NCBI GenBank assembly: GCA_948739805.1
Contig: CAPYID010000007.1
Span: 6,253 to 70,252 of the forward strand
Length of the DNA: 64,000 nucleotides
Reading direction: 5' to 3'
Source: an uncultured Clostridia bacterium
GTDB lineage: Bacteria; Bacillota; Clostridia; TANB77; CAG-508
This document shows positions 17,598 through 57,263 of this stretch, piece after piece (the stretch's first letter is position 1; every line of letters begins with the position of its first letter). A program made the position numbers and the translations under genes. A model generated the notes under the pieces. The model ran no database searches and had not been told where the DNA came from. It saw only the letters and a list, made by a program, of their open reading frames with translations.

Positions 17598-17660
17598 GTG
17601 GGCATTGTGCACCAAGTAAAATTTGCTCCGCAAATTTTACTTGACTCATTCGCCCCTACA
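17598..17660 (-). repeat. composite REP-like unit in the lepA-rlmB spacer
   Basis: On the + strand: GTGGGCATTGTGCACC[CAAGTAAAATTTGC-TCC-GCAAATTTTACTTG]ACTCATTCGCCCCTACA. A 14-bp perfect hairpin is nested inside a unit that ends in the family tail GCCCCTACA. Confidence 0.55.
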
Positions 17661-19469
17661 TCATTCCTCATCATCTAGCTTTAAAACCGATAGAAACGCT
17701 TCTTGTGGTACTTCGACGTTTCCTATTTGACGCATTTTCTTTTTTCCTCGTTTTTGCTTTTCAAGTAGTTTCTTTTTTCTTGTTATATCTCCTCCATAAC
17801 ATTTTGCTAATACATCTTTTCTCATTGCTGATATTGTTTCTCTTGCTATTATTTTTCCTCCTACTACTGCTTGAAGTGGTATTATAAATAATTGTCTAGG
17901 TATTACTGTTTTTAGTTTTTCTACCATCTTTCTTCCTCTATTATAAGCACTGCCTTTAAATACTATAAATGATAAAGCATCAACTGGTTCATTGTTTACA
18001 TGTATGTCTAGTCTTACAAGTTCTGAACGTTTATATTCTTTGAATTCATAGTCAAAAGATGCATATCCCTTTGTTTTAGATTTTAGGTTATCAAAAAAGT
18101 CATATATTATTTCATTTAATGGCATATCATATATTAAAGTAACTCTGTTTTCATCTAAGTATTTCATATCTATATAATTTCCTCGTCTGTCTTGACATAT
18201 TTGCATTAGATTTCCTACATATTCTTTAGGTGTATATATTTCTGCTTTTACTATTGGTTCTTCAATATAAGAGATTTCTTGCCCTGATGGTAAATCTGTA
18301 GGATTATATAAATCTAATATTGTACCATCTGTTTTGTGTACCTTATATATAACTGATGGTGCAGTAGTTATTAGCCCTAAGTCAAATTCTCTATCTAATC
18401 TTTCTTGTATTATTTCTAAGTGTAATAATCCTAAAAATCCACATCGGAATCCAAATCCTAATGCTGCTGAGGTTTCTGGTTCATATTGAAGGGCAGCATC
18501 GTTTAGCTTTAATTTTTCAAGTGCTACTTTTAAATTCTCATATTGGCTTCCATCCATTGGATATATTCCACAATATACCATAGGATTTACTTTTTTATAT
18601 CCTGGTAATGCCTCTGTTGCGGGATTTGAATTAACTGTAATTGTGTCTCCAACATGTATATCTTCTAGATTTTTTATGCTTGCTGCAATATATCCAACTT
18701 CTCCTGCTTTTATTTCATTTGATTCTATATATGTTCCTGGTTCAAAATAACCTACCTCTGCTACTGTAAATACCTTGTTTGCTTTCATAAGTCTTATTTC
18801 GTCTCCTGGTTTTATTGTCCCTTCAAATACTCTTACATAAGCAATTGCTCCTTTGTAATTATCATAATATGAATCAAATATTAAACATTTGGCTGGTGAA
18901 TTTTCATCTCCTCTTGGTGCTGGAATGTCTTTTACAATTCTTTCTAATACCTCTTCAACATTTAATCCTGTTTTTGCTGAAATACATGGTGCTGTTTCTG
19001 CTTCAATTCCTATTATATCTTCTATTTCTTTTTTTATTTCGTCTGGTCTTGCATTTGGTAAATCTACTTTATTTATTACAGGTATTATTTCAAGATTATT
19101 ATCTATTGCTAGATAAACATTCGCTAAAGTTTGTGCTTCAACTCCTTGAGAAGCATCCACTACAAGTATTGCTCCATCACATGCTGCTAAACTCCTAGAT
19201 ACCTCATAATTGAAGTCAACATGTCCTGGTGTGTCTATTAAATTAAAAATATATTCTTCTCCATTTTTAGCTTTATATATCATTCTTACTGCTTGAGATT
19301 TTATAGTAATTCCACGCTCTTTTTCTAATTCCATATTATCTAATACTTGGCTTTCCATTTCACGTTTAGATAATACTCCTGTCATTTCTATTATTCTATC
19401 TGATAATGTAGACTTTCCATGATCTATATGTGCAATTATACTAAAATTTCTAATATGATTTCTATCCAT
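17661..19469 (-). CDS. lepA: translation elongation factor 4
   Basis: 602 aa with [25 protein letters not shown], and a LepA C-terminal domain. Confidence 0.97.
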
Positions 19470-19545
19470 TGTTTTCCCTTCTCATTTTATTTTTTTATAT
19501 TTTAGCATATAAGTTTTTTATTTTCAATGCTTTATATATCATCTC

Positions 19546-28867: not shown

Positions 28868-29326
28868 TTATTTCTCCTTTACATCAATAAATTTTAAACA
28901 TTCTAAAGAATTTTCTGTACAAAATGCAATTTGATGTGTTGGATGCCTAAATTTTGCTAATTCCCAAAATGCTTCTCTTGTAATTTGTCCTGATATTAAA
29001 TCTGTTACATAATTATATACTTGGTCATCTGCCATTGCACCTATTACAATATCGTAATTATGCTTTTTCCCACTTCTGCATTCTATTATAAAATCTAGCC
29101 ATTCCTCTGTCATCAATGTAAAATTCTTTATTTTCAACTTTGGAATTTCGTTATATTCATATATGTTAATCTTTGGTGTCTCATATTTCTTTGCCCATTT
29201 TTCTGCTTGCTCCTCTAATATTGTACAATAAAATCCAATCCCAAAATCTTTTGTAAATTTACCTTTTATTATTTCTGGATTTTCTACTTTGCAGTAACTA
29301 CCATGATATACTATTTGTTTTGACAT
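28868..29326 (-). CDS. DUF3990 domain protein
   Basis: N-terminus VYHGS....DFGIGFYCT...QAEKWA. Confidence 0.65.
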   Translation of the reverse strand: MSKQIVYHGSYCKVENPEIIKGKFTKDFGIGFYCTILEEQAEKWAKKYETPKINIYEYNEIPKLKIKNFTLMTEEWLDFIIECRSGKKHNYDIVIGAMADDQVYNYVTDLISGQITREAFWELAKFRHPTHQIAFCTENSLECLKFIDVKEK

Positions 29327-29338
29327 ATAATATCCTCC

Positions 29339-29647
29339 TTATATAATTATCATATAAATTAAAAATGCTATTTCTGCAATTAATATTAAAGGCATGCCTA
29401 TTGTAAATTTCTTTTTCTGTGTTTTATGTCTAAATGCGTACATTCCAGCTATTGTGCCTATTCCTCCACCTAACCATGTAAATACAAATAATGTATTTTC
29501 TGAAATTCTCCATCTACCTTTTTCTGCTTTTTTCTTATCTATCAACATTATTAAAAATCCTAATAAGTTTATTATTATTAAATATATTAATATATTCTTA
29601 AATGTTATTATTGGTAAAGTTAATAGCCATTCTTTAAAACCTTTCAT
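29339..29647 (-). CDS. DUF1294 membrane protein
   Basis: IDKKKAEKGRWRISENTLF...GGGIGTIAGMYAFRHKTQKKKF. Confidence 0.7.
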   Translation of the reverse strand: MKGFKEWLLTLPIITFKNILIYLIIINLLGFLIMLIDKKKAEKGRWRISENTLFVFTWLGGGIGTIAGMYAFRHKTQKKKFTIGMPLILIAEIAFLIYMIII

Positions 29648-29770
29648 TGTTTATTTCTCTCCCTTATTTTTTTATTTTCCTTTAATTATTTTATTATAAT
29701 ATGACAAAAATATCAAGTTTTTTGTTTACTATTTGCGGTTTTTATGATAATATTTAATAATGGAATAAAA

Positions 29771-29822
29771 GGGCACAGTGGTGTCATGTCTAATAAGTAT
29801 TCCCTCAAACGGTTCTCCTACA
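29771..29822 (-). repeat. 52-nt conserved intergenic element, copy 1 (ends in the CCTACA tail)
   Basis: GGGCACAGTGGTGTCATGTCTAATAAGTATTCCCTCAAACGGTTCTCCTACA. My hand alignment gives 41 of 52 identities with 55323..55374. Confidence 0.7.
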
Positions 29823-29882
29823 ATTTACATTAAATTATTAATCTAATATTTTTACGTTTTATGAAAGGATGATATAAATATT

Positions 29883-30842
29883 ATGGAAGATAATAAAAAA
29901 TTAGTTACAATATTAATTCCAACTTATAATGAAGAAGAAGCATTGCCTATACTTTATGAAAGACTTGTTAAATTAATGGATAGCCTTCCTCAATATAATT
30001 TTGAGCTTCTATTTGTAAATGATGGTAGTCGTGATAAAACTTTAGACATATTAAAAGAAATGAGAAAATCTGACTCTAGAGTTTGTTATGTTAATTTATC
30101 TAGAAACTATGGTAAAGAAGTTGCAATGATTGCTGGCTTTGATTATATTAATGGGGATTGTATGATTAATATTGATGCAGACTTACAAGACCCACCAGAA
30201 CTTATTCCTGAGATGTTAAAATATTGGGAAGAAGGATATGATGATGTTTATGCAAAACGTAAATCTAGAAAAGGAGAATCTATTTTTAAAAAATTAACTT
30301 CTTGGGGATATTATAGAGTTTTACAGAGTATGACTAATATTCAGATTCAAACTGATACTGGAGATTTTAGATTATTAGATAGACGTTGTGTTGAAGCCAT
30401 ACGCCAAATGAGAGAATCTCAAAGATATACTAAGGGGCTATATAGTTGGATTGGTTATAAGAAAAAAGAAATATTATATGATAGAGATGTAAGAGTTGCT
30501 GGTAAAACCAAATGGAATTATAGACAATTAGCTAATTTATCTATTGATGGAATAACCTCTTTTACTACCTCTCCTCTTCGTTGGGCTACTATAATTGGTA
30601 TGTTGGTTTCATTATGTGGTTTTATTTATATGATGATTATAATTGCAAAAACATTAATATCTGGTATTGATGTTCCTGGTTATGCTTCTATGATGGTTGT
30701 AATATTATTTTTAGGTGGATTACAACTTATATTCTTAGGTATTATTGGTGAATATCTTGGACGAGCGTTTTACGAATCTAAAGGAAGACCTTTATACTTT
30801 ATAGATTGCTATAATGAAAATAGGGAAACTAATATAAAATAA
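29883..30842 (+). CDS. family 2 glycosyltransferase (polyprenyl-phosphate glycosyltransferase, GtrB/ArnC-like)
   Basis: ILIPTYNEE, DGSRD and DADLQDP motifs, plus two C-terminal TM segments. Confidence 0.85.
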   Translation: MEDNKKLVTILIPTYNEEEALPILYERLVKLMDSLPQYNFELLFVNDGSRDKTLDILKEMRKSDSRVCYVNLSRNYGKEVAMIAGFDYINGDCMINIDADLQDPPELIPEMLKYWEEGYDDVYAKRKSRKGESIFKKLTSWGYYRVLQSMTNIQIQTDTGDFRLLDRRCVEAIRQMRESQRYTKGLYSWIGYKKKEILYDRDVRVAGKTKWNYRQLANLSIDGITSFTTSPLRWATIIGMLVSLCGFIYMMIIIAKTLISGIDVPGYASMMVVILFLGGLQLIFLGIIGEYLGRAFYESKGRPLYFIDCYNENRETNIK

Positions 30843-30848
30843 TTCTGT

Positions 30849-30872
30849 GGACGAGCAATGCTCGCCCCTATA
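30849..30872 (-). repeat. REP-like palindromic unit
   Basis: On the + strand: GGACGAGCA-A-TGCTCGCCC-CTATA. Near-identical to 55260..55283. Confidence 0.7.
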
Positions 30873-30958
30873 TTTTGAATTGATTTTTCCTATACAACCC
30901 AAAAGTGATGGATACAAAATCCTCCTACAACATAATCTTTATAATAAAGGAGATTTAT

Positions 30959-31708
30959 ATGAGTGCTTATGTTTTAAAATTAATTGCAATAATAACTATG
31001 GTGTTTGACCATAGTGGATATTTAATATATGGACATCTTTCCTGGATGAATTTTGTTGGTAGAATTGCCTTCCCTATTTTTGCATTTCAGATAAGTGAAG
31101 GATATATCCATACTCATAATTTAAAGAAATATATTGTAAGGTTAATAATATTTGCTATAATTTCCCAAGTTCCATACGCTTGGTTTGGCTATTGCTTCTT
31201 CTCTAAAATGTCTTTAAATATAATTTTTACTTTGATATTGGGGCTATTGTCTATATCTATTTATGAATTTATTTTATCAAAGGGCAAATTGCAATGTGTA
31301 CCTACATCTAATTATGATTCTTCTACAATAGAACAAAATAATAATATATTTCAATATAAAATGTTAGGTATTATAATTGTTTTAATTATTGCAGTTTTTG
31401 CTGATATTTTTGACTTTGATTATGGATTTTATGGTGTATTTATTATCTTCCTTTTCTATTTATACAGAAATAAAAAGTTGTCTATAAATATTGTTATTAC
31501 TATTTTAACTTTTATATATTATACTCCGTATTTTATGGCTAGTAATTTTAATATTACTTATTTGGGATTATTTATTTGCAGTCTTCTACCTCTTATATTC
31601 ATTAATTTATATAATGGTCAAAAAGGAAAAGACCACAAAATGTTATTTTATATTTTCTACCCAGTGCATTTATTAGTTTTATGTTTGATTTATACATTGT
31701 TACATTAA
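30959..31708 (+). CDS. TraX family membrane protein
   Basis: MSAYVLKLIAIITMVFDHSGY..., multi-TM. Start at ATG 30959 after AAAGGAG. Confidence 0.75.
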   Translation: MSAYVLKLIAIITMVFDHSGYLIYGHLSWMNFVGRIAFPIFAFQISEGYIHTHNLKKYIVRLIIFAIISQVPYAWFGYCFFSKMSLNIIFTLILGLLSISIYEFILSKGKLQCVPTSNYDSSTIEQNNNIFQYKMLGIIIVLIIAVFADIFDFDYGFYGVFIIFLFYLYRNKKLSINIVITILTFIYYTPYFMASNFNITYLGLFICSLLPLIFINLYNGQKGKDHKMLFYIFYPVHLLVLCLIYTLLH

Positions 31709-31909: not shown

Positions 31910-34900
31910 TTATAATGCATCAAATAAACTTAATTGGTTGCTTGTGCTCATTCCATCTAAGCACCCAAATTTATCTAATAAATCTATTATAGATTTTCCT
32001 GCTTTTGACCTTTTCATTAAATCTTCTTTTGATATAAATTCTCCATCTTTTCTTGCTTCTACTATACTTTCAGCAGCTACCTGTCCAAGACCTGCTATAC
32101 TACATAATGAAGGTCTAATTCCTTCAGGCTCCATTTTAAATTTAGTAGCATCTGATTTATATATATCTATTGGTAAGAATGTTATCCCTCTTTTATACAT
32201 TTCTAGTACATATTCTAAAACGTTATACATTCCCTTATCTTTTTGTGTTGCAGCGTTTCCAAGTTTATCTATTTCCTCCATTTTGTCTTTTACCTTTTTT
32301 TCTCCGAAAATCATAAATTCACTATCAAATTCATCTGCCCTTATTGAGTACATTGTTGCATAATAAGCCTTTGGAATATGAACTTTAAACCATGCAATTC
32401 TAAAAGCATTAATAACATATGCTGCTGCATGTGCTTTTGGGAACATATATTTAATTTTTTTGCAAGATTCTATATACCATTCTGGAACATTATTATCCCT
32501 CATGAGAATTTCTTGGTCTTCTGTTAATCCTTTTCCTTTACGAACTGATTCCATTATTTTAAATGAATTTTGCGCAGGTAACCCCATACTCATTAAATAA
32601 ATCATAATGTCATCCCTTGTACATATAGCTTCTGATAGAGTTATTGTTCCATTATTAATTAATTCTTGTGCATTGTTTAACCATACATCTGTACCATGAG
32701 ATAAACCTGATATTCTTAATAATTCCTCAAATGTACTTGGTTTTGTGTCTACTAACATTCCTCTTACAAATTTTGTTCCAAACTCTGGTACTCCAAATGT
32801 AGCAACTTCTGAATTTATATCCTCTTTTCTCACCCCTATCGCTTCTGTTGATGAAAATATAGACATTGTAGTCTTATCATCTAATGGAACTTTAGTTGGA
32901 TCTATCCCTGTCAAATCATATAGCATTCTTATAACTGTTGGATCATCATGACCTAACATATCAAATTTCAAAATATTTTTATCTATTGAGTGGTAATCGA
33001 AATGTGTTGTAACAATATCTGAATCTGGATCATCTGCTGGATGTTGTACTGGACAGAATTCATAAATTTCATGCCCTGTTGGTACAACTACAACTCCTCC
33101 TGGATGCTGACCTGTTGTCCTCTTTATTCCTGTACACCCCTTAGATAATCTATTTATTTCTGCTGAACTAATAACTTGATTTCTTTCTTCAAAATATTTT
33201 TTTACATATCCATAAGCTGTTTTTTCTGCTATTGTTCCAATTGTACCTGCTTTAAATGTAGTTCCTTTTCCTAAAATAACCTCTGCATATTTATGTGCTT
33301 TTGTTTGATATTCTCCTGAGAAATTTAAATCTATATCTGGTTCTTTATCTCCATTAAATCCTAGGAATGTTTCAAATGGTATATCTATTCCATCTTTTAC
33401 AAGTTTTTTTCCGCATTTTGGACACCATGCATCTGGAAGGTCAATTCCATTCTTAAATCCATGATCAGAAAAATCTGAATATTTACATTTAGGACACCTG
33501 TAATGTGCTTTTAATCCATTAACCTCTGTTATACCTGTCATATACGCTACCAGTGATGAACCAACAGAACCTCTTGAACCAACTATGTATCCATCTTCAT
33601 TTGATTTCCAAACTAATTTCTGTGCAATAATATACATAACAGAAAATCCATTCTTTATGATAGAGTCTAATTCTTTCCTAAGTCTTGTTTCTACAATTTC
33701 TGGTAATGGATCCCCATATAATTCATGTGCTTTATTCATAGCAATATCTTCTATTGTTTTTTCACATCCTTCAATATATGGAGTACATTTATCTGGAGAT
33801 ATTGGACTTATTGGTTCACACATATCTGCTACTTTATTTGTATTTGTTACAACTACCTCATATGCCTTTTCCTTTCCTAAATATGCAAATTCGTTTAGCA
33901 TCTCTTCTGTTGTTCTTAAATATAATGGTGCTTGATGGTCTGCATCATCAAAGCCTTGTCCAGCCTGCAAAATCCTTCTATATATTTCATCTTCTGGATC
34001 CATGAAATGTACATCACAAGTAGCACAAACTAATTTATCTAATTTTTCTCCTAATTCAACTATCTTTCTATTTATAGCAATTAAATCATCTTGACTTTTT
34101 AAAATACCTTCTCTTATTAGATATTCATCATTTCCTAATGGTTGTATCTCTAAATAATCATAAAACCTTGCAATTTCTTCTATTTTATCTTCTGAATATC
34201 CATTTAGAATAGATTGATATAATTCTCCTTGGTCACATGCACTACCTATTATTAATCCTTCACTATATTTTTTATATATACTTTTGGGTATTCTTGGTCT
34301 TTTATAAAAATAATCCAAGTGTGAAAATGATATTAATTTATATAGATTTTTAAGTCCAATAGGATTTGTTGCTATAATTATTGCGTGATATGTTGGTAGC
34401 TTCTTTATGTTCATATTTTTAGAAGATATTGCATCAATATCATTTAATTTTGTAACTCCTTGTTCTTTTAATTTTTCTAACATTACCTCAAATACTTTTA
34501 CAAGTGTTTTAACATCATCTAAAGCACGATGTGCTACATCTACTTTTATTCTTAGGTTTGCTGCAATCATACCCAGTTTATATTTTGTATATTCTGGAAA
34601 CAAATCTTTTGCTAAGCTTAAAGTATCAATATATGTATTATTAAATTTTAATCCCAATTTATTTGCTTGATATCTTAAAAATCCTATATCAAAATTGGCA
34701 TTATGTGCAACTAATACATCGTCTCCACAGAATTTTATAAATTCTGGAAGAACATCTTTTATAGTTTTTGCGTTTTTAACCATATCATCTGTAATATGTG
34801 TAACTTGAACTACCTCATAAGGTATTGGTTTTTCTGGGTTTACAAAGCATTCAAATTCATCTACAATTTCTCCATTTTTAATCTTTATAGCACCTAATTC

Positions 34901-35893
34901 AGTTATCATTTCACTTCTATATGGTATACCTGTTGTCTCAATATCTAGAACACAATATTCCGTATCAATATCTATATTTCCCTCTCCATACACACTTGTT
35001 TGACCATCTGGACATAAATATGCTTCAACTCCATATAAAACTTTTATATCATTATTTCCTTTTTTTACAGTATCATTTGCATGTGGAAATGATTGTGCTA
35101 CACCATGATCTGTAATAGCAATAGATTTCATTCCCCATTTTCTTGCTCTATTTATCAAGTCTTCTACTGGGGTTATTCCATCCATTTGGCTCATTTGTGT
35201 ATGCATATGTAGTTCTACTCTTTTTATTTCTGCATTATCCATTCTTGTTAAAATTTCTTTTTTAGGTAGACTTATTACTACATTTGCAATAATTGTTATT
35301 TCTCTTGCATAAGGGTCAAATTGTGCATTTCCTTCTAATTCCACGTAACTATTTTCTTGTAATCGTGCTCTAACATCTTCTAATTTATCAGGTTCAACAA
35401 ATGATTTACATGTAATAGTACTGCTTCCATCATATATATCAAAACAATACAATGTTTTTCCATTTCTTAGTTCCCTTTCTTCAACTCTTGTAACTCTACC
35501 TGAAATTGCAACTTTTCCACTTTCAGCTGTAACCTCTTTTACTTTTATCATTTTTTCATTTATTTTAGCTCTTTTTGTTCCTATAATTATTGGACTTAGT
35601 TCTTGAATTGGTGCTTCTTTTTCGATATTTTTTTCTTCCTTATCTTCTTTTTTATTAGAATTTACATTTATGTATTCTATATTTATTGTAGCTTTTGCTA
35701 CATTAAATCTATTTTTTAAATATATTTCAAATGATAGAATTTCACCTGTTTGTATCTTAATATCTGTTTGAAGAAATATACTTAATTCTCTAGTCTTTTT
35801 TGACATTGTTATATTTGAAATTTTTGCTTTCATTATGTTATTTTTTTCTTCAAAATCATTAAATATTTCTGAAACTTTTTTCATTTCTGCCAT
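31910..35893 (-). CDS. polC: PolC-type DNA polymerase III alpha subunit
   Basis: PHP domain, inserted DEDD exonuclease (DIETTG...HNANFDIGFL...HRALDD) and polymerase core. Start at MAEMKK (ATG 35893). Confidence 0.96.
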   Translation of the reverse strand: MAEMKKVSEIFNDFEEKNNIMKAKISNITMSKKTRELSIFLQTDIKIQTGEILSFEIYLKNRFNVAKATINIEYINVNSNKKEDKEEKNIEKEAPIQELSPIIIGTKRAKINEKMIKVKEVTAESGKVAISGRVTRVEERELRNGKTLYCFDIYDGSSTITCKSFVEPDKLEDVRARLQENSYVELEGNAQFDPYAREITIIANVVISLPKKEILTRMDNAEIKRVELHMHTQMSQMDGITPVEDLINRARKWGMKSIAITDHGVAQSFPHANDTVKKGNNDIKVLYGVEAYLCPDGQTSVYGEGNIDIDTEYCVLDIETTGIPYRSEMITELGAIKIKNGEIVDEFECFVNPEKPIPYEVVQVTHITDDMVKNAKTIKDVLPEFIKFCGDDVLVAHNANFDIGFLRYQANKLGLKFNNTYIDTLSLAKDLFPEYTKYKLGMIAANLRIKVDVAHRALDDVKTLVKVFEVMLEKLKEQGVTKLNDIDAISSKNMNIKKLPTYHAIIIATNPIGLKNLYKLISFSHLDYFYKRPRIPKSIYKKYSEGLIIGSACDQGELYQSILNGYSEDKIEEIARFYDYLEIQPLGNDEYLIREGILKSQDDLIAINRKIVELGEKLDKLVCATCDVHFMDPEDEIYRRILQAGQGFDDADHQAPLYLRTTEEMLNEFAYLGKEKAYEVVVTNTNKVADMCEPISPISPDKCTPYIEGCEKTIEDIAMNKAHELYGDPLPEIVETRLRKELDSIIKNGFSVMYIIAQKLVWKSNEDGYIVGSRGSVGSSLVAYMTGITEVNGLKAHYRCPKCKYSDFSDHGFKNGIDLPDAWCPKCGKKLVKDGIDIPFETFLGFNGDKEPDIDLNFSGEYQTKAHKYAEVILGKGTTFKAGTIGTIAEKTAYGYVKKYFEERNQVISSAEINRLSKGCTGIKRTTGQHPGGVVVVPTGHEIYEFCPVQHPADDPDSDIVTTHFDYHSIDKNILKFDMLGHDDPTVIRMLYDLTGIDPTKVPLDDKTTMSIFSSTEAIGVRKEDINSEVATFGVPEFGTKFVRGMLVDTKPSTFEELLRISGLSHGTDVWLNNAQELINNGTITLSEAICTRDDIMIYLMSMGLPAQNSFKIMESVRKGKGLTEDQEILMRDNNVPEWYIESCKKIKYMFPKAHAAAYVINAFRIAWFKVHIPKAYYATMYSIRADEFDSEFMIFGEKKVKDKMEEIDKLGNAATQKDKGMYNVLEYVLEMYKRGITFLPIDIYKSDATKFKMEPEGIRPSLCSIAGLGQVAAESIVEARKDGEFISKEDLMKRSKAGKSIIDLLDKFGCLDGMSTSNQLSLFDAL

Positions 35894-35999
35894 TTTATTA
35901 GTCATTCCTTTTTATTATATTTTCTAGATTATTTTATCAAATTTAATGATTTTTTACAATTGTTTTTATAATTTTTAAAAAATAAGCTATGGAAAAATA

Positions 36000-38924: not shown

Positions 38925-38948
38925 AGGACACATGTATGTGTCCTTTTT
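38925..38948 (+). terminator. rho-independent terminator
   Basis: AGGACACA-TGTA-TGTGTCCT followed by TTTTTC. Confidence 0.8.
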
Positions 38949-47426: not shown

Positions 47427-48173
47427 CTATGATTTTTTCTTTTTCTGCATGTAATATGAACATTTTGCTAGAACCACCGTTGGCGTTAGTTTTGAAAAGA
47501 ACTTTGCTAGTTTTATTGTAAAGCCTGGTACTATATAAAATTTATTTTTTAACATTTTATCTACTGTATATCTTGCAACATATTCACTTGTTAAAGATTT
47601 TATTTCAAATTTTACATTTGCTACATTATTAAAATTTGTTTTTACTGGTCCTGGACATAGTAAGCTTATTTTTACTTTTGAGTTTTGTTTATTTAATTCT
47701 TCTCTTATTGCTTCTGAAAGTCTTACTACATATGCCTTTGAAGAATAGTAGGTTGCCATTAATGGTCCTGGCATAAATCCTGCTATTGATGCAACATTTA
47801 GTATTCTCCCACTATTTCTTTTAGTCATATCTTGTAAATATAATTTAGTTAATACATGTAATGCTATTATATTTGTGTCTATAATTGTTAATTCTTTTTC
47901 TAAATCTGTTTCTGTAAATTTTCCAAATTCTCCTAACCCTGCATTGTTCACTAGTATATCTATATCTTTTGCTTGTTCATATAATTTTTTGCAATTTTCT
48001 TCTATTGTTAAATCCATAACTATTATTTCTACTTTTGTTGTTAAGTCTTTCTTTAATTCTTCTAACTTTTCTTTATTTCTTGCTACTATTACTAGGTCAT
48101 ATCCTCTTTTTGATAATTCTCTTGCAATGTCTCTTCCTATTCCAGAAGAGGCTCCTGTTATTAAAGCTCTCAT
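47427..48173 (-). CDS. SDR family oxidoreductase
   Basis: TGASSGIGRDIA, NNAG, YSSSKAY. Confidence 0.88.
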   Translation of the reverse strand: MRALITGASSGIGRDIARELSKRGYDLVIVARNKEKLEELKKDLTTKVEIIVMDLTIEENCKKLYEQAKDIDILVNNAGLGEFGKFTETDLEKELTIIDTNIIALHVLTKLYLQDMTKRNSGRILNVASIAGFMPGPLMATYYSSKAYVVRLSEAIREELNKQNSKVKISLLCPGPVKTNFNNVANVKFEIKSLTSEYVARYTVDKMLKNKFYIVPGFTIKLAKFFSKLTPTVVLAKCSYYMQKKKKS

Positions 48174-48380
48174 AATTTATTTTTCTCCTTAATATCTTTA
48201 TTGATTATACAAATTTTTGTTCTTTTTAGTATTGACATTTTCTCAATTTTATATTAAACTTATTTTCATAGGAAATGAGAATAAGCAGATGTATGTTGCC
48301 ACTTTTAATCCGTGATTTTTTTCATAGGAATGGAGGTGGTAATTTCATTATCTCCATAATGATAGTTTTTTTGCAATAGA

Positions 48381-48404
48381 GGGCACATGCAATGTGCCCC
48401 TACA
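48381..48404 (-). repeat. REP-like palindromic unit
   Basis: On the + strand: GGGCACAT-GCA-ATGTGCCC-CTACA. The first 23 nt are identical to 57241..57263. Confidence 0.75.
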
Positions 48405-48433
48405 ATACATATTTTGTTTTATGTTTTCTAAAC

Positions 48434-48457
48434 GGACGCCCAAAGGGCGCCCCTACA
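48434..48457 (-). repeat. REP-like palindromic unit
   Basis: On the + strand: GGACGCCC-AAA-GGGCGCCC-CTACA (one A-C mismatch). Same subfamily as 45154..45177. Confidence 0.7.
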
Positions 48458-48467
48458 TATCTAATAT

Positions 48468-51400
48468 TTAAATTTTAGTTACATCAATATTTATTTTTTC
48501 TCCATTGATATTACATTCTGTGTATTCTTTTCTTTCTGCATTATATACTATCTCTATTGTTAATGTTTCTTTTTTTATTTCTGGCTTATTCTTTTCTATA
48601 ATGTCTTGTAAGGTTTTATTTCCATTTACATATAATGTAATTCTGTCTAATACTTCAAATCCTTTGTCTTTTCTCATGTTTTGTATTTTTGATATTAATT
48701 CTCTTACATACCCTTCTTCTCTTAGTTCTTCTGTTATTGTTGTATCTAATACTACACCTAGTGTTCCTGTTCCTGCAAATGCAAATCCTTCTATTCCTTG
48801 CATTGTTACAAGTAAATTTTCTGCATTTAATTCTATTTCTGTTTCTCCTAATTTCGCTATAACTGATTCACCATTTTTGATTTTTGATGCTAATTCCATT
48901 TGATTTTGAGCTGATATATATTTCTTTATTTCTGGAATTAGTTTTCCATATGTTTTTCCTAATACTGGTAAATTAGGCATTATATTAAAGTTTACATATT
49001 TTGATAAATCTGCTCCTAGTACTACTGTCTTTATATTTAATTCTTCTTTTATAATGTCTCCATAATAGTCTGGAATCGCTTTTTCTGATATTAACATTTT
49101 TGAAAGTGGTTGCCTATTTTTTATATTAGCTGAGTTTCTTGCACTTCTTCCTAATTTTACTAAGTTGTATGCTAATTCCATTTCTTCTTCTAGCTTTTTG
49201 TCTACTTCTTCTACATGATATTCTGGCCACATGTTTAAATGAACACTTTCTTTAGCATTCCTATCAAGTGATACTACTAAGTTTTGATACATATTTTCTG
49301 TTATAAATGGTACAAATGGTGCTGCTACTTGGCATAGTGTTACTAAAACTCTATATAGTGTTATAAATGCTCCTAATTTGTCATCTGTTAGTGCATTTGC
49401 CCAAAATCTGCTTCTGTTTCTTCTTACATACCAGTTTGAAAGTTCATCTGTAAAATTTTCTATATCTAGTGCTGCTCCTGTTATATCATATGCATCTAAT
49501 TTTTCATCTACAGATTTTACTAATGTGTTTAATTTACTTACTATCCATTTGTCCATTACATTTTCTGAGATAAATCCTTTATGTTCTAATGGATTAATTT
49601 TATCTATCTCTGCATATAAAACATAGAAAGAATATACATTCCATAAAGTTCCTAAAAATCTTCTTGAGGTTTCCCCAACATCTTCTTTTGAAAATCTTGT
49701 TGGTAGCCATGGTGCACTTGATGTATAGAAATGCCATCTTGTAGCATCTGCTCCTTCGCCTTCCATTACTTCAAATGGGTCTACAACATTTCCTTTTGAT
49801 TTTGACATTTTTAATCCTTTTTTGTCTAGGACATGTCCTAATACTATACAGTTTTCAAATGCTGATTTTCCAAATACCGCAGTTGATACAGCAAGTAATG
49901 TATAGAACCACCCTCTAGTTTGATCTACTGCTTCTGATATAAATTGTGCTGGGAAATTCTTTTCAAATAATTCTTTATTTTCAAAAGGATAATGTAATTG
50001 CGCAAAAGGCATTGATCCTGAATCAAACCAACAATCCATAACTTCTTTTACTCTTGTCATTTCTTTTCCACATTCAGGGCATTTTAAATGCACATCATCT
50101 ATATATGGTTTATGAAGTTCTATATCTTCTGGTACATTTATTCCTTTTTCTTTTAAATCTTTTATGCTTCCTATACATTCTTCATGTCCACATTCACATT
50201 GCCATATTGGAAGTGGTGTTCCCCAATATCTATCTCTTGAAATACACCAATCTATTACATTTTCTACAAAGTTTCCGAATCTTCCTGTTCTTATTGTATC
50301 TGGATACCAATGAATTTTGTTGTTATTTTCAACTAGTTCATCTTTTAATGTAGACATTGCTACAAACCAGCTATCCTTTGGATAGTATAATAATGGTGTG
50401 TCACATCTCCAACAATGTGGATATGAGTGCATATGTCTTTCTGCTTTAAATAGTTGATTCATGTTTTTTAAGTATTCTATTATACTTTCATTACATTTTC
50501 TAATATCTTTTCCTGCCCAAGGTGTAATTTCTGAAACGAATTTTCCATCTTTGTCAACAATATTTATAAATGCTATTCCATTTTGTTTTCTAACAACAGT
50601 ATCTTCCTCACCATAGGGTGCAATATGAACTATTCCTGTGCCATCTGATAAACTTACATAATCTCCATGTATTACAACAAAAGCCTTTCCCTCTACTTTT
50701 GCAAATGGCATTAATTGCTCATATTTTGTTCCTAATAATTCTTCACCCTTAAATTCTTTTATTATTTTGTATTTTCCTTCTCCCAATATTTTGTCACACA
50801 AATCTTTAGCCAGTATGTATATTTCTCCTGGTTTCATATTGCAATTCTCATCTACTTCAATATCTTCTTTAAGTTTAGCTTCTACATAAGTGAAATTTTT
50901 ATTTACACATATAGCTAAATTTGAAGGTAATGTCCATGGAGTTGTTGTCCATGATAGGATGTATTTATTTTCATCAACTTTAAACTTTGCTATACAAGTT
51001 ATATCATTTACATCTTTATATCCCTGAGCAAGTTCATGTGAAGACAAAGCTGTACCACATCTTGGACAATATGGCATAACTTTATGTCCTTGATATATTA
51101 AATTTTTGTCCCACATTTGTTTTACTGCCCACCAAATAGATTCTATGTATTCATTATGGTAGGTTACATATGGTTTTTCCATATCAACCCAGTAACCTAT
51201 TTGGTTTGTCATTTTTTCCCATTGTGAAACATAGTTAAATACACTTGATTTACAGTCTTTGATAAATTTTTCTACACCATATTCTTCTATTTGTGCTTTC
51301 CCAGATATTCCAAGTTTTTTTTCTATTTCAAGTTCTACTGGTAATCCTTGTGTATCCCATCCAGCTTTTCTAATTACTTTATAACCTTTCATTACTTTAT

Positions 51401-51611
51401 ATCTTGGTATAATATCTTTCATAACTCTAGTTAAAATATGTCCAACATGTGGTTTACCATTAGCTGTTGGTGGTCCATCATAAAATGTAAAGTATTCTCC
51501 ATCTTTGTTTAATTTGAAATTTTTATCTATTATGTCTTTTTCCTTCCACATGTTTAAAACTTCTCTTTCCATTCCTGGAAAACCATTTGGTAATTCAACT
51601 TTTTTGTACAT
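48468..51611 (-). CDS. ileS: isoleucine--tRNA ligase (long, type 2 form)
   Basis: 1047 aa with the HIGH region [17 protein letters not shown], and a CP1 editing domain. Confidence 0.96.
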
Positions 51612-51693
51612 GTTTATTCCTCCCCTACTATAATTAATAATTAATAGTGAATAGTTAATAATTATTCATTATTCATTATTCACTATCAAATTT

Positions 51694-53007
51694 TTAAGCA
51701 CTTTGTTTGTTTTTTTCTATTACTTTTTTTCTTTTCTTTTTCGTTGTAGAGTTTTGTCCTTTATTTTCATTTATAACTAATTTAGGTTGCTCATGGTTTA
51801 ATACTGTTTCTTTAGTTATAATACATTTTTCAATTTTATTATTCGAAGGTATATCAAACATAATATCTCTCATTATTTCTTCTATAATTGAACGAAGTCC
51901 TCTTGCGCCTGTATTTCTTTCTATCGCCTTATTTACAATTGCTTGTAGTGCTCCATCTTCAAATTCTAATTCTACTCCATCTAATTCTAATAATTTTTTA
52001 TATTGTTTGACTAAAGCATTTTTGGGTTCTGCCACTATTTTAATAAGTGCTTCTTTATTTAATTCTTTTAGTGTGGTTACAATAGGCAATCTCCCTACAA
52101 ATTCTGGAATTAGTCCAAATTTCAATAAATCTTGTGGTAATAACTCTTCATATGCTTTATATTTATCTATTTCTTGATTACTATCTTTTTCTTGACCAAA
52201 TCCTATTAATTTTTTTCCTATTCTTTCGTTAATAATTTTGTCTAGTCCCTCAAATGCTCCTCCACAAATAAATAATATGTTTTCTGTATTTATTTGAATT
52301 AGCTCTTGATGAGGATGTTTCCTTCCTCCTTGAGGTGGAACTGAAGCAATTGTTCCTTCTATTATTTTTAAGAGTGATTGTTGTACTCCTTCTCCACTAA
52401 CATCTCTTGTAATTGATGGATTTTCTGACTTTCTTGTTATTTTATCTATTTCATCAATATATACAATTCCTTGTTCCGCTTTTTCTACATCATAATCTGC
52501 AGATTGAATTAATTTTAATAGTATATTTTCTACATCTTCTCCTACATATCCTGCCTCTGTTAGTGTTGTTGCATCTGCTATTGCAAATGGAACATTTAAG
52601 ATTTTAGCTAAGGTTTGTGCTAATAATGTTTTTCCACAACCTGTAGGTCCTAGTAATAATACATTACTTTTTTGAATTTCAACATCATCAATATCTTCTT
52701 GATTATTTATTCTTTTATAATGATTGTATACTGCTACTGCTAAAGTTTTTTTCGCATCTTCTTGGCCTATTACATAATCATCTAATATATTTTTTATTTC
52801 TTGTGGGTTTGGTAATTCTTTTTTTTCTTCTTCTATTGCATATTGCATATTATCATATTCTAAATCGTCTTCATCTAATATATTTCTACATACGCCTATA
52901 CATTCATCGCATATATATACTCCTGGTCCTGCGATTATTCTTTTTACTCCTGTTTGTGGTTTTCCACAAAAGGAACATTTTATATTTTTCTCTTTACTCT
53001 TTGGCAT
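51694..53007 (-). CDS. clpX: ATP-dependent Clp protease ATP-binding subunit ClpX
   Basis: N-terminal zinc finger CSFCGK...CDEC, Walker A GPTGCGKT, and an IGF-type loop region. Confidence 0.97.
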
Positions 53008-53097
53008 TAACGTGCCTCCTATTTATTATATTTTATTATTGTTTCATTTGGTTTCATTTTTATACTCTATTCTTTTGTATATTTAAAAAATTTGATT

Positions 53098-53172
53098 ATA
53101 GGGGCATATTGCAATGTACCCGCTTTAAAATTATCTTTAATTTCTGCTAGCACGCTACAACATGCCCCTACG
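53098..53172. repeat. inverted pair of REP-like units (REPIN-like doublet) in the clpX-clpP spacer
   Basis: 53098-53121 ATAGGGGCATATTGCAATGTACCC has its head on the + strand. 53146-53172 ...ACATGCCCCTACG has its head on the minus strand. AGGGGCAT and ATGCCCCT form an 8-bp outer inverted repeat. Confidence 0.6.
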
Positions 53173-53224
53173 ATTTATTAATATATACTACACGTCTATG
53201 TCTAATTTTGGGCTTGTTTTAATT

Positions 53225-53833
53225 TTATTGTGGTCTTTCCATTATTCCATCTATTAATCCATACTTTAATGCTTCTTCTGCTGTCATGTAGTTGTCTCTT
53301 TCTGTATCTTTATTAATTACTTCTAATGGTTGACCTGTTCTTTCACTTAAAATTTTGTTTAATTTCTCTCTCGTTTTTACCATATGATCTGCATGTATTT
53401 TAATTTCTGTTGTTTGCCCTTGTATTCCACCACCCATTATTAATGGTTGGTGTATTAATATTTCTGAGTTTGGTGTTGCATAACGTTTTCCTTTTGTTCC
53501 TGAGGCTAGTAGTACTGCTCCCATACTTGCTGCCATCCCTATACATATTGTTGATACTGGGCATTTTATATAATTAATTGTATCATATATTGCCATACCA
53601 GCTGTTATAGAACCTCCTGGACTATTTATGTATAAATAAATTTCTTTGTCTGGATCTTCTGCTTCTAGAAATAATAGTTCTGCAACTATTACATTTGCAC
53701 TTGCTTGGTCTACCTCTTCTCCTAAAAATATTATTCTGTCTTTTAATAATCTTGAGTATATATCATATGATCTCTCACCTTTGTTTGTTTGTTCAATTAC
53801 ATATGGTATTAATGTATTTTTTTCATCTAACAT
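53225..53833 (-). CDS. clpP: ATP-dependent Clp protease proteolytic subunit
   Basis: 202 aa with the catalytic context GMAASMG and IHQP. Confidence 0.97.
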
Positions 53834-53865
53834 AAATTTTTCCTCCCTTGTTCAATTAATTTTAA

Positions 53866-55149
53866 TTATTTGATTTTTGCATTGTCAACAATAAATTTTA
53901 CAACTTTTTCATTTACTATAAAGTTTTTAATATAGTTCATAAATTGTTCGTTTTGTTTTAATTCATCTGCTGATTTTCGATAAGCATCTGCCATTTCCGT
54001 AACTTTTGTATTAATAGCTTCTTCTTCTGGTTCTATTTTTTCCTCTTTTATTATTGCTTCTAATACTAATCTTGTTTTTACAGATATTTTAGCTTGTTCC
54101 TCATTTTCTTTTCTAAATTCTTCAGTTGTTTTTCCTACCATTTGTAAATAGTTTTCTAAATTCATTCCTTGATATTGTAGTCTTGTTTCAACATCTTTTA
54201 CTATATTATCTATTTCTGTTTCTATCATTCCTGATGGAATATCAATTTCTGTGTTTTCACATACAGCTTTTATTGCCTCATCTTCTGTTTCATACTTTTC
54301 TCTATTTTTATTCTCGTCTTCTAATTTTTCTTTTATACTAGCTTTTAATTCTTCTAGTGTGTCGAATTCACTTGTGTCTTTTGCGAATTCGTCATTAATT
54401 TCTGGTATTTCCTTCTTCTTTATTTCATGCACTTTAACCTTAAATGTTGCATCTTTTCCTTTTAAGTCTTCAGAAAAATATTCTTCAGGAAATTTTACAT
54501 TAATGTCCTTTTCTTCATCTATCTTCATTCCAACCATTTGATCTTCAAATCCTGGAATAAAAGTATTACTTCCTATTTCTAGTTCATATCCTTCTGCTTT
54601 TCCACCTTCAAATGCTTTTCCTTCAACAAATCCTTCAAAATCCATTACAACTGTATCTTTATGTTCAACTGGTCTATCTTCTACTACAACTAGTCTAGAA
54701 TTTCTTTCTGCCATTGTATTTAATTCTTTGTTAATATCCTCTTCAGATACAGGATATTCTATTTTTCTAATTTGCACACCTTTATATTTTCCAAGTTTTA
54801 CTTCTGGCTTTGTTTGGATAACTGCTGTAAAAATCAATTCTTTCCCTTTTTCCATTTGTTTAACTTCAATTTCTGGTTTACTTACTGGTTCAATATTATT
54901 TGTTTTTATTTCTTCTTCAAATACTGGTGGAACAACCTCATTGAAAGCATCTTCATAAAATATTTCTGTACCATATATTCTTTCTGCCATTTCAAATGGA
55001 GCTTTTCCTTTTCTAAATCCTGGTATATTAAAATATTTTGAACTCTTTGCATATACTGTTTTTATTGCTTTTTCAAATTTCTCTGTTTCTATTGTAAATT
55101 CTAATTTTAATTCATTTGCATTCTCTGTTTTTTCAATTTTCACGCTCAT
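53866..55149 (-). CDS. tig: trigger factor
   Basis: 427 aa with the ribosome-binding motif GFRKGKAP and a central FKBP domain. Conserved tig-clpP-clpX order. Confidence 0.96.
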   Translation of the reverse strand: MSVKIEKTENANELKLEFTIETEKFEKAIKTVYAKSSKYFNIPGFRKGKAPFEMAERIYGTEIFYEDAFNEVVPPVFEEEIKTNNIEPVSKPEIEVKQMEKGKELIFTAVIQTKPEVKLGKYKGVQIRKIEYPVSEEDINKELNTMAERNSRLVVVEDRPVEHKDTVVMDFEGFVEGKAFEGGKAEGYELEIGSNTFIPGFEDQMVGMKIDEEKDINVKFPEEYFSEDLKGKDATFKVKVHEIKKKEIPEINDEFAKDTSEFDTLEELKASIKEKLEDENKNREKYETEDEAIKAVCENTEIDIPSGMIETEIDNIVKDVETRLQYQGMNLENYLQMVGKTTEEFRKENEEQAKISVKTRLVLEAIIKEEKIEPEEEAINTKVTEMADAYRKSADELKQNEQFMNYIKNFIVNEKVVKFIVDNAKIK

Positions 55150-55259
55150 TACTTTTTCTTCCTCTCTACTTTTTTAATTTTAATGTTATTATTATATCCA
55201 CTTTTTTATTTGGTGTCAATATTTTTAGGTAATTTATCATGGTAATTTATTCAGCAAAC

Positions 55260-55283
55260 GGACGAGCAATGCTCACCCCTATA
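55260..55283 (-). repeat. REP-like palindromic unit
   Basis: On the + strand: GGACGAGCAATGCTCACCCCTATA. Differs at 1 position from 30849..30872. Confidence 0.7.
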
Positions 55284-55322
55284 TTCATTCATAATATTTT
55301 ATAATTATTTTCTATATTTCAT

Positions 55323-55374
55323 GGGTACAGCGGTGTCATTTCTATGGGGTATTGCCTCAAAAGGTGCCCCTACA
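55323..55374 (-). repeat. 52-nt conserved intergenic element, copy 2
   Basis: GGGTACAGCGGTGTCATTTCTATGGGGTATTGCCTCAAAAGGTGCCCCTACA, followed by a TCTAA-rich run at 55378-55412. Confidence 0.7.
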
Positions 55375-55411
55375 TATTCTAACTTCTAGTCTCTAATATC
55401 TAATCTCTATC

Positions 55412-57034
55412 TCAATATTGCCTTACCCATTCTTCTATATTATAGAATATATTATAAAAATTTGGTGTTATTCTTCCTTGTAAATCTTGTGTATATATTA
55501 CAGTTCCTCTATTAAAGTATAAACTTACATATGGTCTTTCTTCTTCTATTAATCTTATTAATTGTTTATATTTATTTTGTAGTTCAGTTTCATTATCTGA
55601 TAAGTCTGCAATTTCTCTTAAAAGTTCATTTGCTTCTGTGTCTTCAAATTGTGATAGATTTCCATTTCCTATATAACTTGTTAGATCAGGGCTAATTCCA
55701 ATTAGTTTACCTGTTAAAATCATATCATAGTTTTTGTTTTCTAAATATTTGGCATATTGCGATGAATTTGCCCTTATTATATTTACGATTATTCCTGTTT
55801 CTGCTAGTTGCTTTTCAATTTCTTCTGCAACTGCAAGCCTTTTTAAATTATTCGCATCTACTACTAAATTTAAGCTTGCTCTCATAGTTGTTCCACTCTC
55901 TTGTTTTTGCCAATTTCCACTTACTAATTCCCAGCCAGCTTCTTCTAATAATTCTTTTGATTTATTTGTGTTATAACTAGAACTTACTTTTTCTACTTTA
56001 TATAAATAGTTTGATGTACTTACTGGAAAGTCTGCTACATAATATTTATTTTCATATACAGAGGTTACTATATTTGACTTGTCTATTGCATAGTTAATTG
56101 CTTTTCTTAGTTCTTCGTTTCTTAGTGCTCCACTTGAACAATTAAGTGCTAAATAGTCATATTCTCTTCCTATATATTCTACTGTTTTATATCCCATTGT
56201 TCCTATATGTTCTTCATAATTTAAACTTTGTGTAGTCATTAAATCAAGGTTTCCTAGCTTAAAAGCATTATACGCTTCGCCAGCAGATGCATACATTTTT
56301 ACTAAAATATTTTCTAATGATAAATTTTTTCCAGATGATAGACCCCACCAATTAGTGTTCTTTTTTAGTTCTATTTCTGTGCTTGTTATATTTCCAATCA
56401 CATATTTTCCTGTTCCTGGTGCATTATTATTTTTTAAACTTGTTGCAATTGCATCATTTTCATAATATTGTGATGACATTATGGGAAATGTTAAATTATA
56501 TTCAAAAAATGGTATCTTATCATCTATTGTTATTTTTATTGTATAAGTACTTAATATTTCTACATTTACTATATGATGTATATTTGAATAATAAATTGAG
56601 TTTCCTCCTATTGCTGCAATTTGTTCTATTGTGAATTTCACATCATTTGCTGTGAGTTCTCCTCCATTTTGCCATTTAATTCCTTCTTTTAAAACTACTA
56701 CATATGCTGTATCGCTAAGGTTTATCCATTCTTTTGCTAAACAATTTTCAATTTGGTAGTCTTCTGTAATTGATAGCATTGGCTCATATATTAGTTTAGA
56801 TATATCTTGCACATTTTGATTATTGCTTGTTATTGGATTTATTGTATCAATGCTTATAGCAGCAATTCTTAATGTTGTTATTGTCGTCAATTTTTTTTCT
56901 TCCTTTTCTTGAGCTGTTTCTTCTACTGCGTTTTCATCATTTCCTTTTTTATTTAAGAATACTGCACATATAATTAATACTATTACAAATATTACAAATA
57001 CATATTTTAAAAAATTGTATTTCTTCATAATCAA
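55412..57034 (-). CDS. ABC transporter substrate-binding protein, family 5 (peptide/nickel type)
   Basis: 540 aa with an N-terminal TM/signal anchor and SBP_bac_5-like sequence. No permease or ATPase genes are adjacent. Confidence 0.8.
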   Translation of the reverse strand: MIMKKYNFLKYVFVIFVIVLIICAVFLNKKGNDENAVEETAQEKEEKKLTTITTLRIAAISIDTINPITSNNQNVQDISKLIYEPMLSITEDYQIENCLAKEWINLSDTAYVVVLKEGIKWQNGGELTANDVKFTIEQIAAIGGNSIYYSNIHHIVNVEILSTYTIKITIDDKIPFFEYNLTFPIMSSQYYENDAIATSLKNNNAPGTGKYVIGNITSTEIELKKNTNWWGLSSGKNLSLENILVKMYASAGEAYNAFKLGNLDLMTTQSLNYEEHIGTMGYKTVEYIGREYDYLALNCSSGALRNEELRKAINYAIDKSNIVTSVYENKYYVADFPVSTSNYLYKVEKVSSSYNTNKSKELLEEAGWELVSGNWQKQESGTTMRASLNLVVDANNLKRLAVAEEIEKQLAETGIIVNIIRANSSQYAKYLENKNYDMILTGKLIGISPDLTSYIGNGNLSQFEDTEANELLREIADLSDNETELQNKYKQLIRLIEEERPYVSLYFNRGTVIYTQDLQGRITPNFYNIFYNIEEWVRQY

Positions 57035-57240
57035 TTCCTTTCTAAAAAAAGCAATTATTGTATTTCCTATTTTTGTTAAAACTATTTTATATTATTTTCC
57101 ATTTTTATGCAATATATAATATAAGAACAAATAAGAAAAATCAAAGATTTTTCTTTAATTTGTTCTCTCCCTACCAAAGTTTTCGACTGTAAGGAGAAAA
57201 TCTCAAGGGCTAGCGATTATAGCATTTATATAATAGGAAA

Positions 57241-57263
57241 GGGCACATGCAATGTGCCCCTAC
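57241..57263 (-). repeat. REP-like palindromic unit
   Basis: On the + strand: GGGCACATGCAATGTGCCCCTAC, identical to 48381..48403. Confidence 0.75.

Follow-up and report, generated by a model that had tools for sequence, protein, structure and literature searches.

Repetitive extragenic palindromic (REP) elements and their REP-associated tyrosine transposases (RAYTs, or TnpA_REP) have, to our knowledge, been studied almost entirely in Proteobacteria. Here we describe a family of short hairpin repeats in a 64,000-nucleotide (nt) stretch of DNA from an uncultured, AT-rich gut lineage of Clostridia (GenBank assembly GCA_948739805.1, contig CAPYID010000007.1, positions 6,253 to 70,252; the whole stretch is hereafter the window), a host group in which a well-formed REP family has been little noted. 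In the described systems, the strand that TnpA_REP binds reads 5′-GTAG-hairpin (4ER8, summarised in PMC6006769). A preference for the lagging-strand template is established for IS608 and ISDra2 and has been proposed for REPs by analogy (PMC3333891). The subclass nearest to the present case is TnpA_REP 2.4, in which the stem foot has three G-C pairs, double-foot REPs occur, and REPs lie in frame in the stretch of the gene that separates its HuH motif from its Y motif (Quentin et al., 2018, BMC Genomics 19:475, PMC6006769). It is probably the same as RAYT Group 4 of Bertels et al. (2017), who mention Clostridia for another RAYT group only. The units described here are very probably GTAG-tagged REP elements of this subclass, that is, short non-autonomous hairpin repeats. 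Since both the unit and the architecture of the associated RAYT match subclass 2.4, the kind of element is already known.

A structured and dispersed repeat family

The repeat family is real and structured. The at least 12 intergenic GC-rich units that a preliminary description had claimed are borne out as eight canonical 23-nt units, of which seven read head-first on the minus and one on the plus strand, and four longer or decayed relatives, all on the minus strand; motif enrichment and an independent covariance model agree on the canonical units. Read head-first, a unit consists of [G/A]TAG + GGGCxxxx + 3 nt + xxxxG[C/T]CC, so that an 8-bp GC-footed stem with a 3-nt loop stands directly 3′ of [G/A]TAG. 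The conserved part of the head is [G/A]TAGGGGC; the ATAT prefix formerly included in it is confined to three units. CCCCTAYA occurs eight times in the window as against 1.7 ± 1.3 in shuffled sequence (0/100 shuffles reached eight), and all eight occurrences of GTAGGGG are on the minus strand. Perfect GC-rich hairpins number only ten in the 64 kb, and CTAC follows four of them. The covariance model (CM), trained on 22 distinct units from related genomes only, with the window excluded, recovers the seven minus-strand units at E ≤ 0.003 and the plus-strand unit at E = 0.023.

The inner stem divides the window units into four subfamilies, ACAT/ATGT, GCCC/GGGC, GAGC/GCTC and GATT/AATC. The outer four pairs, GGGC/GCCC, are fixed, and the inner four differ between subfamilies by changes on both sides. 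Double changes in the inner stem fill 29 cells as against 9 ± 2 in shuffles, a count for which the units were chosen for their pairing, so that only the compensatory pattern between subfamilies carries weight. The head is GTAG in 8/12 window units and in 20/22 distinct unit sequences of the relatives. A GGG...CCC stem foot is present in most units, the GTCC variants having G-T as their third pair. All 12 window units are intergenic and lie within 40 kb; ten are singlets, and there is one doublet (53098/53171) with one decayed arm.

The family is dispersed in relatives and across phyla. A genome-collection scan with the pattern GTAGGGGCACAT-NNN-ATGTGCCC, the commonest unit being GTAGGGGCACATTGCATGTGCCC, reported its results as 8-kb blocks and found at least 120 of them, in at least 34 metagenome-assembled genomes (MAGs) of at least 10 phyla. 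Among the matches listed, to which the rest of this paragraph refers, related MAGs have up to 11 matching blocks each, on different contigs, and the titles of MAGs with the unit name Clostridia, Fusobacteria, Armatimonadota, Planctomycetota, Chloroflexota, Omnitrophota, Kapaibacterium, Synechococcales, Acidobacteriota and Elusimicrobia. The GC content of the blocks spans 25–63%, most copies across genomes have the loop TGC in common, and inverted pairs and double-foot GTAG...CTAC palindromes are frequent in other genomes. The flanks of the cross-phylum copies are unrelated, and the unit itself is therefore the conserved entity. All of the matches are MAGs; the composition of their flanks is native, and in one genome 13 matching blocks lie on a 2.9-Mb contig, so that contamination is not the source of the pattern.

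Association with RAYT genes and turnover of the copies

The link to RAYTs emerged from an unsupervised, all-against-all comparison of the open reading frames (ORFs) in the matching blocks. Besides the usual abundant families (e.g., two-component regulators), it returned one cluster of small Y1/HUH ORFs adjoining the units in five genomes of four phyla; by estimate, a single-copy gene would be expected by chance in about 0.3 of 120 random 8-kb blocks, as against the five seen. These ORFs carry the motifs IMPNH[VI]H (HUH) and WQRNYYEH (catalytic Tyr), and pass the Pfam Y1_Tnp cutoff of 23 bits with 40–43 bits. The proteins score best against NCBIfam NF047646 REP_Tyr_transpos, with 78.7 and 62.3 bits, the IS200 model giving 27.6 (cutoff 55); the NF047646 match is interrupted because a REP inserts in frame. 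Database homologs number 7155 at E ≤ 1e-10, some of them named RayT by JGI. A PDB sequence search with the RAYT gave weak matches only, to ISDra2 TnpA and to E. coli TnpA_REP (the latter at E 0.003).

The identical 23-mer flanks the RAYT genes in L028, L121, L139, L140, L026 and L081, and REP copies lie in frame inside the gene in L028, L121, L137, L138, L139, L140, L143 and L026. Within the gene, GTAGGGGCACATTGCATGTGCCC encodes VGAHCMCP, and the inverse unit GGGCACATGCAATGTGCCCCTAC encodes G(H/T)(M/L)QCAPT directly after the HUH strand of the protein; in L139 (8395-8977), the stop codon of the RAYT is the TAG of a GTAG head. Across 115 RAYT homologs with an HUH motif (from P0001-P0120), ...APT follows that motif in 97, at a median of 20 residues on. 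TLQR, TLQC and TMHR back-translate to palindromes with paired codon changes (ACG TTG CAA CGT, ACA TTG CAA TGT and ACG ATG CAT CGT), the DNA itself having been seen for the TLQC/HMQC forms and the others being obtained by back-translation. The preliminary reading of the units as REPs tied to a Y1 transposase has thus found its gene in other genomes, flanked by the units and containing them. Some of the RAYT-bearing MAGs are related to the window organism at the level of the genus.

Within the GTDB collection, the window is closest to SRR17684645_bin.3, 89–95% identical to it in nucleotide sequence over 6.2 kb, and to MGBC122997, 88–91% identical over 7.5 kb; both are titled uncultured Clostridiaceae/Clostridia. 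The RAYT-bearing MGBC114284 is connected to this lineage by a single shared stretch of 1,375 nt, over which it is 82% identical to SRR17684645_bin.3, itself 93% identical to the window. MGBC114284, Lapin-022 bin15 and contig L140 have in common an orthologous locus, nrdD-nrdG-prs-(rpsU)-RAYT-M16, whose flanks are 82–89% identical, and the RAYT coding region of L140 aligns to that of L028 at ~68%. A further species (L143) has a second RAYT paralogue between nrdD and nrdG (2775-2991, 3056-3601) with a REP subfamily of its own, GTAGGGGCGGGCCCTGTGTCCGCCC, present as four tandem 64-nt repeats upstream and as two copies in frame, which read VGAGPVSAQ / DTGPAPT. This agrees with the rule of the literature, one RAYT for one REP family. 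The GTAGGGGCGGGCCCTGTGTCCGCCC subfamily is also found in SRR17684645_bin.3, and is absent from the window.

Several candidates for the RAYT of the source species were tried and rejected. Members of the abundant clusters P0010 and P0005 come from another lineage, with a UvrB 56% identical to that of the window; P0002 and P0004 gave no link to the window, nor did the prs-rpsU-RAYT-M16 locus, as traced by M16 homologs. The sample accessions of RAYT candidates never matched those of window-species samples, and no overlap was found between a candidate contig and either the window or one of its two closest MAGs.

Copies have been gained and lost between close species. In MGBC122997 (L048), the orthologous spacer lacks a block of ~170 nt that holds units 55260 and 55323, unit 48434 is absent together with a 30-nt spacer (53 nt in all) and the adjacent unit 48381 is shared, and only a remnant of the clpP-clpX doublet is present. 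The spacer downstream of lepA is arranged differently in SRR17684645_bin.3 (L080), where it includes an exact canonical unit. As orthologous spacers of species 91–95% identical differ by whole units, the complement of copies turns over. Within the species, ten contigs of 96.7–99.98% identity displayed no clean gain or loss of a unit. In other strains, contig ends fall at several units or no more than ~100 nt from them: L127, L130, L132 and L135 begin at window 57152, ~90 nt from the 57241 unit, and L129, L131 and L134 diverge from the window just 3′ of unit 55260-55282 (~55247), ~50 nt from their own ends. As a separate observation, L131 starts and ends with a 47-nt inverted repeat, TACAAATTTTTTATAAAAGTTTGTTTCACATCATTGACATACTTACA, and L127 ends in the related GATGTGAAACAAA; these termini suggest another small mobile element in the source species.

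Orientation and alternative explanations

In the mechanism envisaged here, which is modelled on TnpA_REP of E. coli and Marinomonas and on IS608, a monomeric Y1/HUH enzyme would bind the folded single strand 5′-GTAG-hairpin-3′, cut at a CT/CA dinucleotide picked by pairing with GTAG, and then rejoin the ends. Units with a variable linker would thereby be excised, inserted or amplified, presumably by an active RAYT still encoded in the source genome. Single-stranded DNA would be most available on the lagging-strand template, and single units would come to lie head-first on the gene-rich strand.

The observed orientation is strongly one-sided, as previously claimed: 11 of the 12 window units are head-first on the minus strand (two-sided binomial p = 0.006). 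The window has a GC content of 28%, and ~90% of its coding length lies on that same strand, including polC (31910-35905; PHP, exonuclease and pol III alpha domains), ileS, tig-clpP-clpX, lepA, uvrB, glyS and relA. In PolC-bearing low-GC bacteria, most genes are on the leading strand; given polC and the majority gene strand, the minus strand is therefore taken as the leading-strand sequence, equivalent to the lagging-strand template. The GC skew that had been proposed as a further comparison offers no independent marker of replication direction, as it flips with gene strand: on the plus strand it is ~-0.2 throughout, and turns positive over the plus-strand pflB island (24-28 kb, 24001-28000). 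In low-GC relatives, counted with a strict unit definition and a classification of flanking genes (a looser definition takes in coding-strand GTAGGA words), single units between codirectional genes are sense in 28 cases and antisense in two; the other antisense units are second arms of inverted pairs, and 13 units sit in divergent spacers.

We lean slightly towards an orientation set by replication, the GTAG strand being the putative lagging-strand template. Transcription might instead have set it, through selection for the direction that is harmless or useful in mRNA (e.g., as a 3′ stabiliser) where most genes share one strand, an alternative that we take seriously and consider rather improbable. 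The 28/30 sense units of the relatives speak for transcription, as do the report that REPs lie mostly downstream of ORFs and are likely RNA elements (PMC3733652) and the failure of GC skew to mark replication separately from genes. The 13 units in divergent spacers speak against it. So do the only two window units that separate the alternatives, 26737 (after pflB) and 30849 (after GT2), which lie between two plus-strand genes, run antisense to both, and share the orientation that prevails in the window; at ~93% sense, two antisense cases out of two would be unlikely (about 0.005 by estimate). Orientation by replichore rather than transcription, the conclusion of the preliminary description, is consistent with these two informative units, short of being demonstrated by them. 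A more far-reaching proposal, tentative and on balance unlikely, is that the REP hairpin within the RAYT gene acts as a “master copy”, held in frame at a fixed place some 20 codons past the HUH motif, with codons that co-vary so as to preserve the DNA palindrome. This would explain an identical 23-mer at 25–63% GC in at least 10 phyla, with copies in low-GC, PolC-bearing hosts landing almost only on the lagging-strand template. If true, genome-wide strand polarity would be a direct footprint of replication-coupled REP transposition, of which we found no report. The strand polarity of single units, the cross-phylum identity of the 23-mer and the nearly fixed place of the in-frame hairpin within the RAYT may all be new.

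Several observations weigh against the identification as RAYT-mobilised REPs. The earlier statement that the 64-kb window has no RAYT gene is borne out, and no source-species RAYT could be assigned through RAYT clusters or tracing of the M16 locus. The better of the two NF047646 scores falls 1.3 bits short of the curated cutoff of 80. Four window units have an ATAG head instead of GT[AG]G, and the 51-nt variants at 29771 and 55323 have no stable fold. The 53-nt difference at unit 48434 could equally be a deletion between two GTAGGGGC direct repeats, and not an insertion. Lastly, the strand bias is confounded with transcription, as the minus strand bears ~90% of the coding length and the skew follows the genes. 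The missing gene leads to a related alternative, that the units are REPs and yet orphans, the source species having lost its RAYT and the copies being fossils that decay or are removed by slippage. In its favor, the 13 blocks of the two closest MAGs are also devoid of a RAYT, large RAYT clusters of the L121/L028 type are few though the window species is common in metagenomes, several copies have decayed (53146, 62663 and 58811), and in a related species the leuS-M16 locus lacks a RAYT. We nevertheless judge it unlikely: units 48381 and 57241 are identical at a distance of 9 kb, unit content differs between the window and its two closest MAGs, only ~100 kb of the relatives' sequence is covered, and RAYT loci assemble poorly because REPs break contigs.

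The remaining alternatives deny that the units are REPs. They are GC-rich hairpins in AT-rich spacers, most of them downstream of a stop codon, as would be expected of ordinary Rho-independent terminators or of gene-specific regulatory hairpins that merely look alike. The units are, however, not intrinsic terminators: no T-run follows the stem at any unit in either orientation, the sequences that do follow being CTACA..., or TTTCC..., ACAG... and GCTAG..., and a scan for Rho-independent terminators over 44-64 kb reported none of them. A conserved GTAG head is not expected of terminators, and copies of the same 23-mer are found within ORFs and divergent spacers and across at least 10 phyla. The notion of ordinary terminators only, which the preliminary description had retained, is dropped, and the broader alternative is very improbable. 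Rfam at gathering thresholds and scans for tRNA and tmRNA found no match in the window, and a generic direct-repeat finder missed the 23-nt units there, all of its matches being chance ones in coding sequence. Hardly credible at all is derivation from the ends or relics of IS200/IS605 insertion sequences (ISs), or from miniature inverted-repeat transposable elements (MITEs) with terminal inverted repeats. A hairpin with a 5′ tetranucleotide does resemble the subterminal hairpins of IS608 and ISDra2, and the associated protein is weakly similar to ISDra2 TnpA. Against this, no tnpA or tnpB stands beside any window unit, the window has no Y1 or TnpB ORF, and no left-end/right-end pair encloses cargo; the associated proteins score far better as REP_Tyr_transpos than as IS200, and the RAYT occupies one conserved chromosomal locus in three related genomes.

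The individual units and comparison with known systems

The canonical minus-strand units are GTAGGGGCGATTAGTAATCGCCC (26737-26759; CM 34.4 bits, E 1.5e-7), with a perfect 8-bp stem, between pflB (+) and the next plus-strand ORF and antisense to both; the ATAG-headed ATAGGGGCGAGCATTGCTCGTCC (30849-30871; 26.3 bits, E 3e-5), between genes for GT2 (+) and TraX (+) (identified by Pfam) and antisense to both; GTAGGGACGCCATTTGGGCGTCC (45154-45176; 20.9 bits, E 0.001), between the convergent smpB (+) and fba (-); the variant GTAGGGGCACATTGCATGTGCCC found across many phyla (48381-48403; 37.7 bits), downstream of ileS and common to the window and its relative L048; GTAGGGGCGCCCTTTGGGCGTCC (48434-48456; 33.8 bits); ATAGGGGTGAGCATTGCTCGTCC (55260-55282; 19.2 bits, E 0.003), upstream of a 12/12 consensus promoter match (55219-55191) that is itself upstream of tig; and a second GTAGGGGCACATTGCATGTGCCC (57241-57263; 37.7 bits), downstream of an M18 aminopeptidase gene. 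The pairings noted before are exact: 48381 equals 57241, 30849 matches 55260, and 45154 matches 48434. The sole plus-strand unit, ATAGGGGCATATTGCAATGTACCC (53098-53121; 16.2 bits, E 0.023), and the minus-strand GTAGGGGCATGTTGTAGCGTGCTAGC (53146-53171), whose head is intact and whose stem is broken, were formerly listed separately and are the two arms of one inverted, REPIN-like doublet (REPIN, REP doublet forming a hairpin) in the clpP-clpX spacer; its 81 nt fold at -14.8 kcal/mol (DNA parameters).

The longer and decayed relatives on the minus strand fared unevenly. Two 51-nt variants share their sequence, interior included, and retain the family head and tail. In one (55323-55373; partial CM match of 13 bits), the head is GTAGGGGCAC, the tail GTACCC, and 35 nt replace the loop; the other (29771-29821) has a GTAGGAG head and lies in the divergent spacer between DUF1294 (-) and GT2 (+) genes. 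The third supposed longer relative, which abuts the lepA stop codon (17598-17660), has a GTAGGGGCG head and a ...GCCC tail and is a composite around an unrelated 14-bp AT-rich hairpin (17613-17643). Of the copies described as decayed, GTAGGTGAAGTCCTTGCATCTGCCC (62663-62687), under the CM threshold and preceded by a TTAGA-repeat cluster, is a probable decayed unit, and TGTAGCATTAATGCCC (58811-58826) possibly a truncated one, the likeness being weak and in sequence only; those at 30922 and 57166 reduce to the word GTAGG.

Clusters of [T/C]TAGA repeats, spaced by 6-8 nt, stand just upstream of some units, right after the stop codon of the upstream gene. Two on the minus strand (55378-55403 and 62697-62720) are directly 5′ of a GTAG head, the former within the block missing from L048; another, at 46176-46247, is an inverted pair without a REP. 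Many units of SRR17684645_bin.3 and its relatives follow another AT-rich motif, AATGAATAATGAATGATTAATGATGAATAAT. With such clusters and motifs ahead of the units, the segment that moves or duplicates may be longer than 23 nt.

Elsewhere in the window, three perfect hairpins (38925-38944, 1105-1134 and 27493-27517) lie outside the family, and that at 38925 (AGGACACATGTATGTGTCCT then TTTTC) looks like a canonical terminator. The smpB gene (44668-45133, +) is split by a frameshift at ~44740-44760 and continues in the +1 frame, which is either a one-base assembly error or the mark of a pseudogene of a normally conserved gene. Two direct repeats of ~220 nt (21644-21863 and 23101-23306; ~90% identical, with an identical 103-nt core at 21716-21818 and 23168-23270) lie on either side of a Phd/ParE toxin-antitoxin pair, which is located between uvrB and a YbaK-like gene. 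In strain L002, bAvd and reverse-transcriptase genes upstream of uvrB, resembling a diversity-generating retroelement, replace the 21644-23306 segment, the alignment ending at 21517.

How do these repeats compare with the known systems? With subclass 2.4, they have in common the 5′ GT[AG]G at the hairpin foot, a stem bottom of three consecutive G-C pairs, the GTAG...CTAC double-foot forms (in other genomes) and a patchy spread over many phyla. They differ in their host, here a low-GC (28%), PolC-type gut bacterium, whereas PMC6006769 stresses Cyanobacteria and Bacteroidetes; in the window units, which are short, with an 8-bp stem, occur mostly singly and not in pairs, and keep strongly to one strand; and in the cognate gene, which was not found in the available sequence of the source species. 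With IS200/IS605 elements (IS608, ISDra2), the likeness lies in the Y1/HUH enzyme, single-strand substrates, a guide tetranucleotide 5′ of the hairpin and the lagging-strand preference; those elements, in contrast, are autonomous and multicopy, their left and right ends being distinct and their transposase dimeric. The families GTAG-1 to GTAG-24 (Di Nocera et al., 2013, PMC3733652) have the same general architecture: their stems are of 6-13 bp and their loops of 2-3 nt, the stems of subfamilies differ by complementary changes, and unidirectional or convergent spacers are preferred. In contrast to the present host, “Firmicutes”, “Clostridi-” and “Fusobacter-” appear nowhere in the text of PMC3733652. 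For the annotation of MAGs, units at contig ends and in-frame peptides of the “VGAHCMCP / GTLQCAPT” type in RAYT gene calls are worth knowing.

The classical REPs of E. coli, with their bacterial interspersed mosaic elements (BIMEs; RAYT group 2; 4ER8), are alike in the GTAG head joined to an imperfect palindrome and in their intergenic, dispersed placement; in E. coli, REP DNA in single-stranded form is cut and rejoined by a single domesticated Y1 enzyme, which would have its counterpart here. E. coli REPs are longer, bulged and mostly in inverted BIME pairs, their stem sequence is unrelated, and the protein is weakly similar (E 0.003). The REPINs of Pseudomonas fluorescens (Bertels & Rainey, 2011, PMC3116915) are matched by inverted doublets, one in the window (53098/53171) and many elsewhere (L016, L053), and by a RAYT at the same locus in three related genomes, whereas most window copies are singlets. 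A flip in the polarity of such singlets at oriC/ter, if borne out in a complete genome, would provide genomic evidence for a coupling between REP spread and the replication fork. The mostly single, GC-rich units of this family are easily recognised in so AT-rich a lineage and make strand polarity measurable, a property that the pairing in BIMEs and REPINs hides in E. coli and Pseudomonas.

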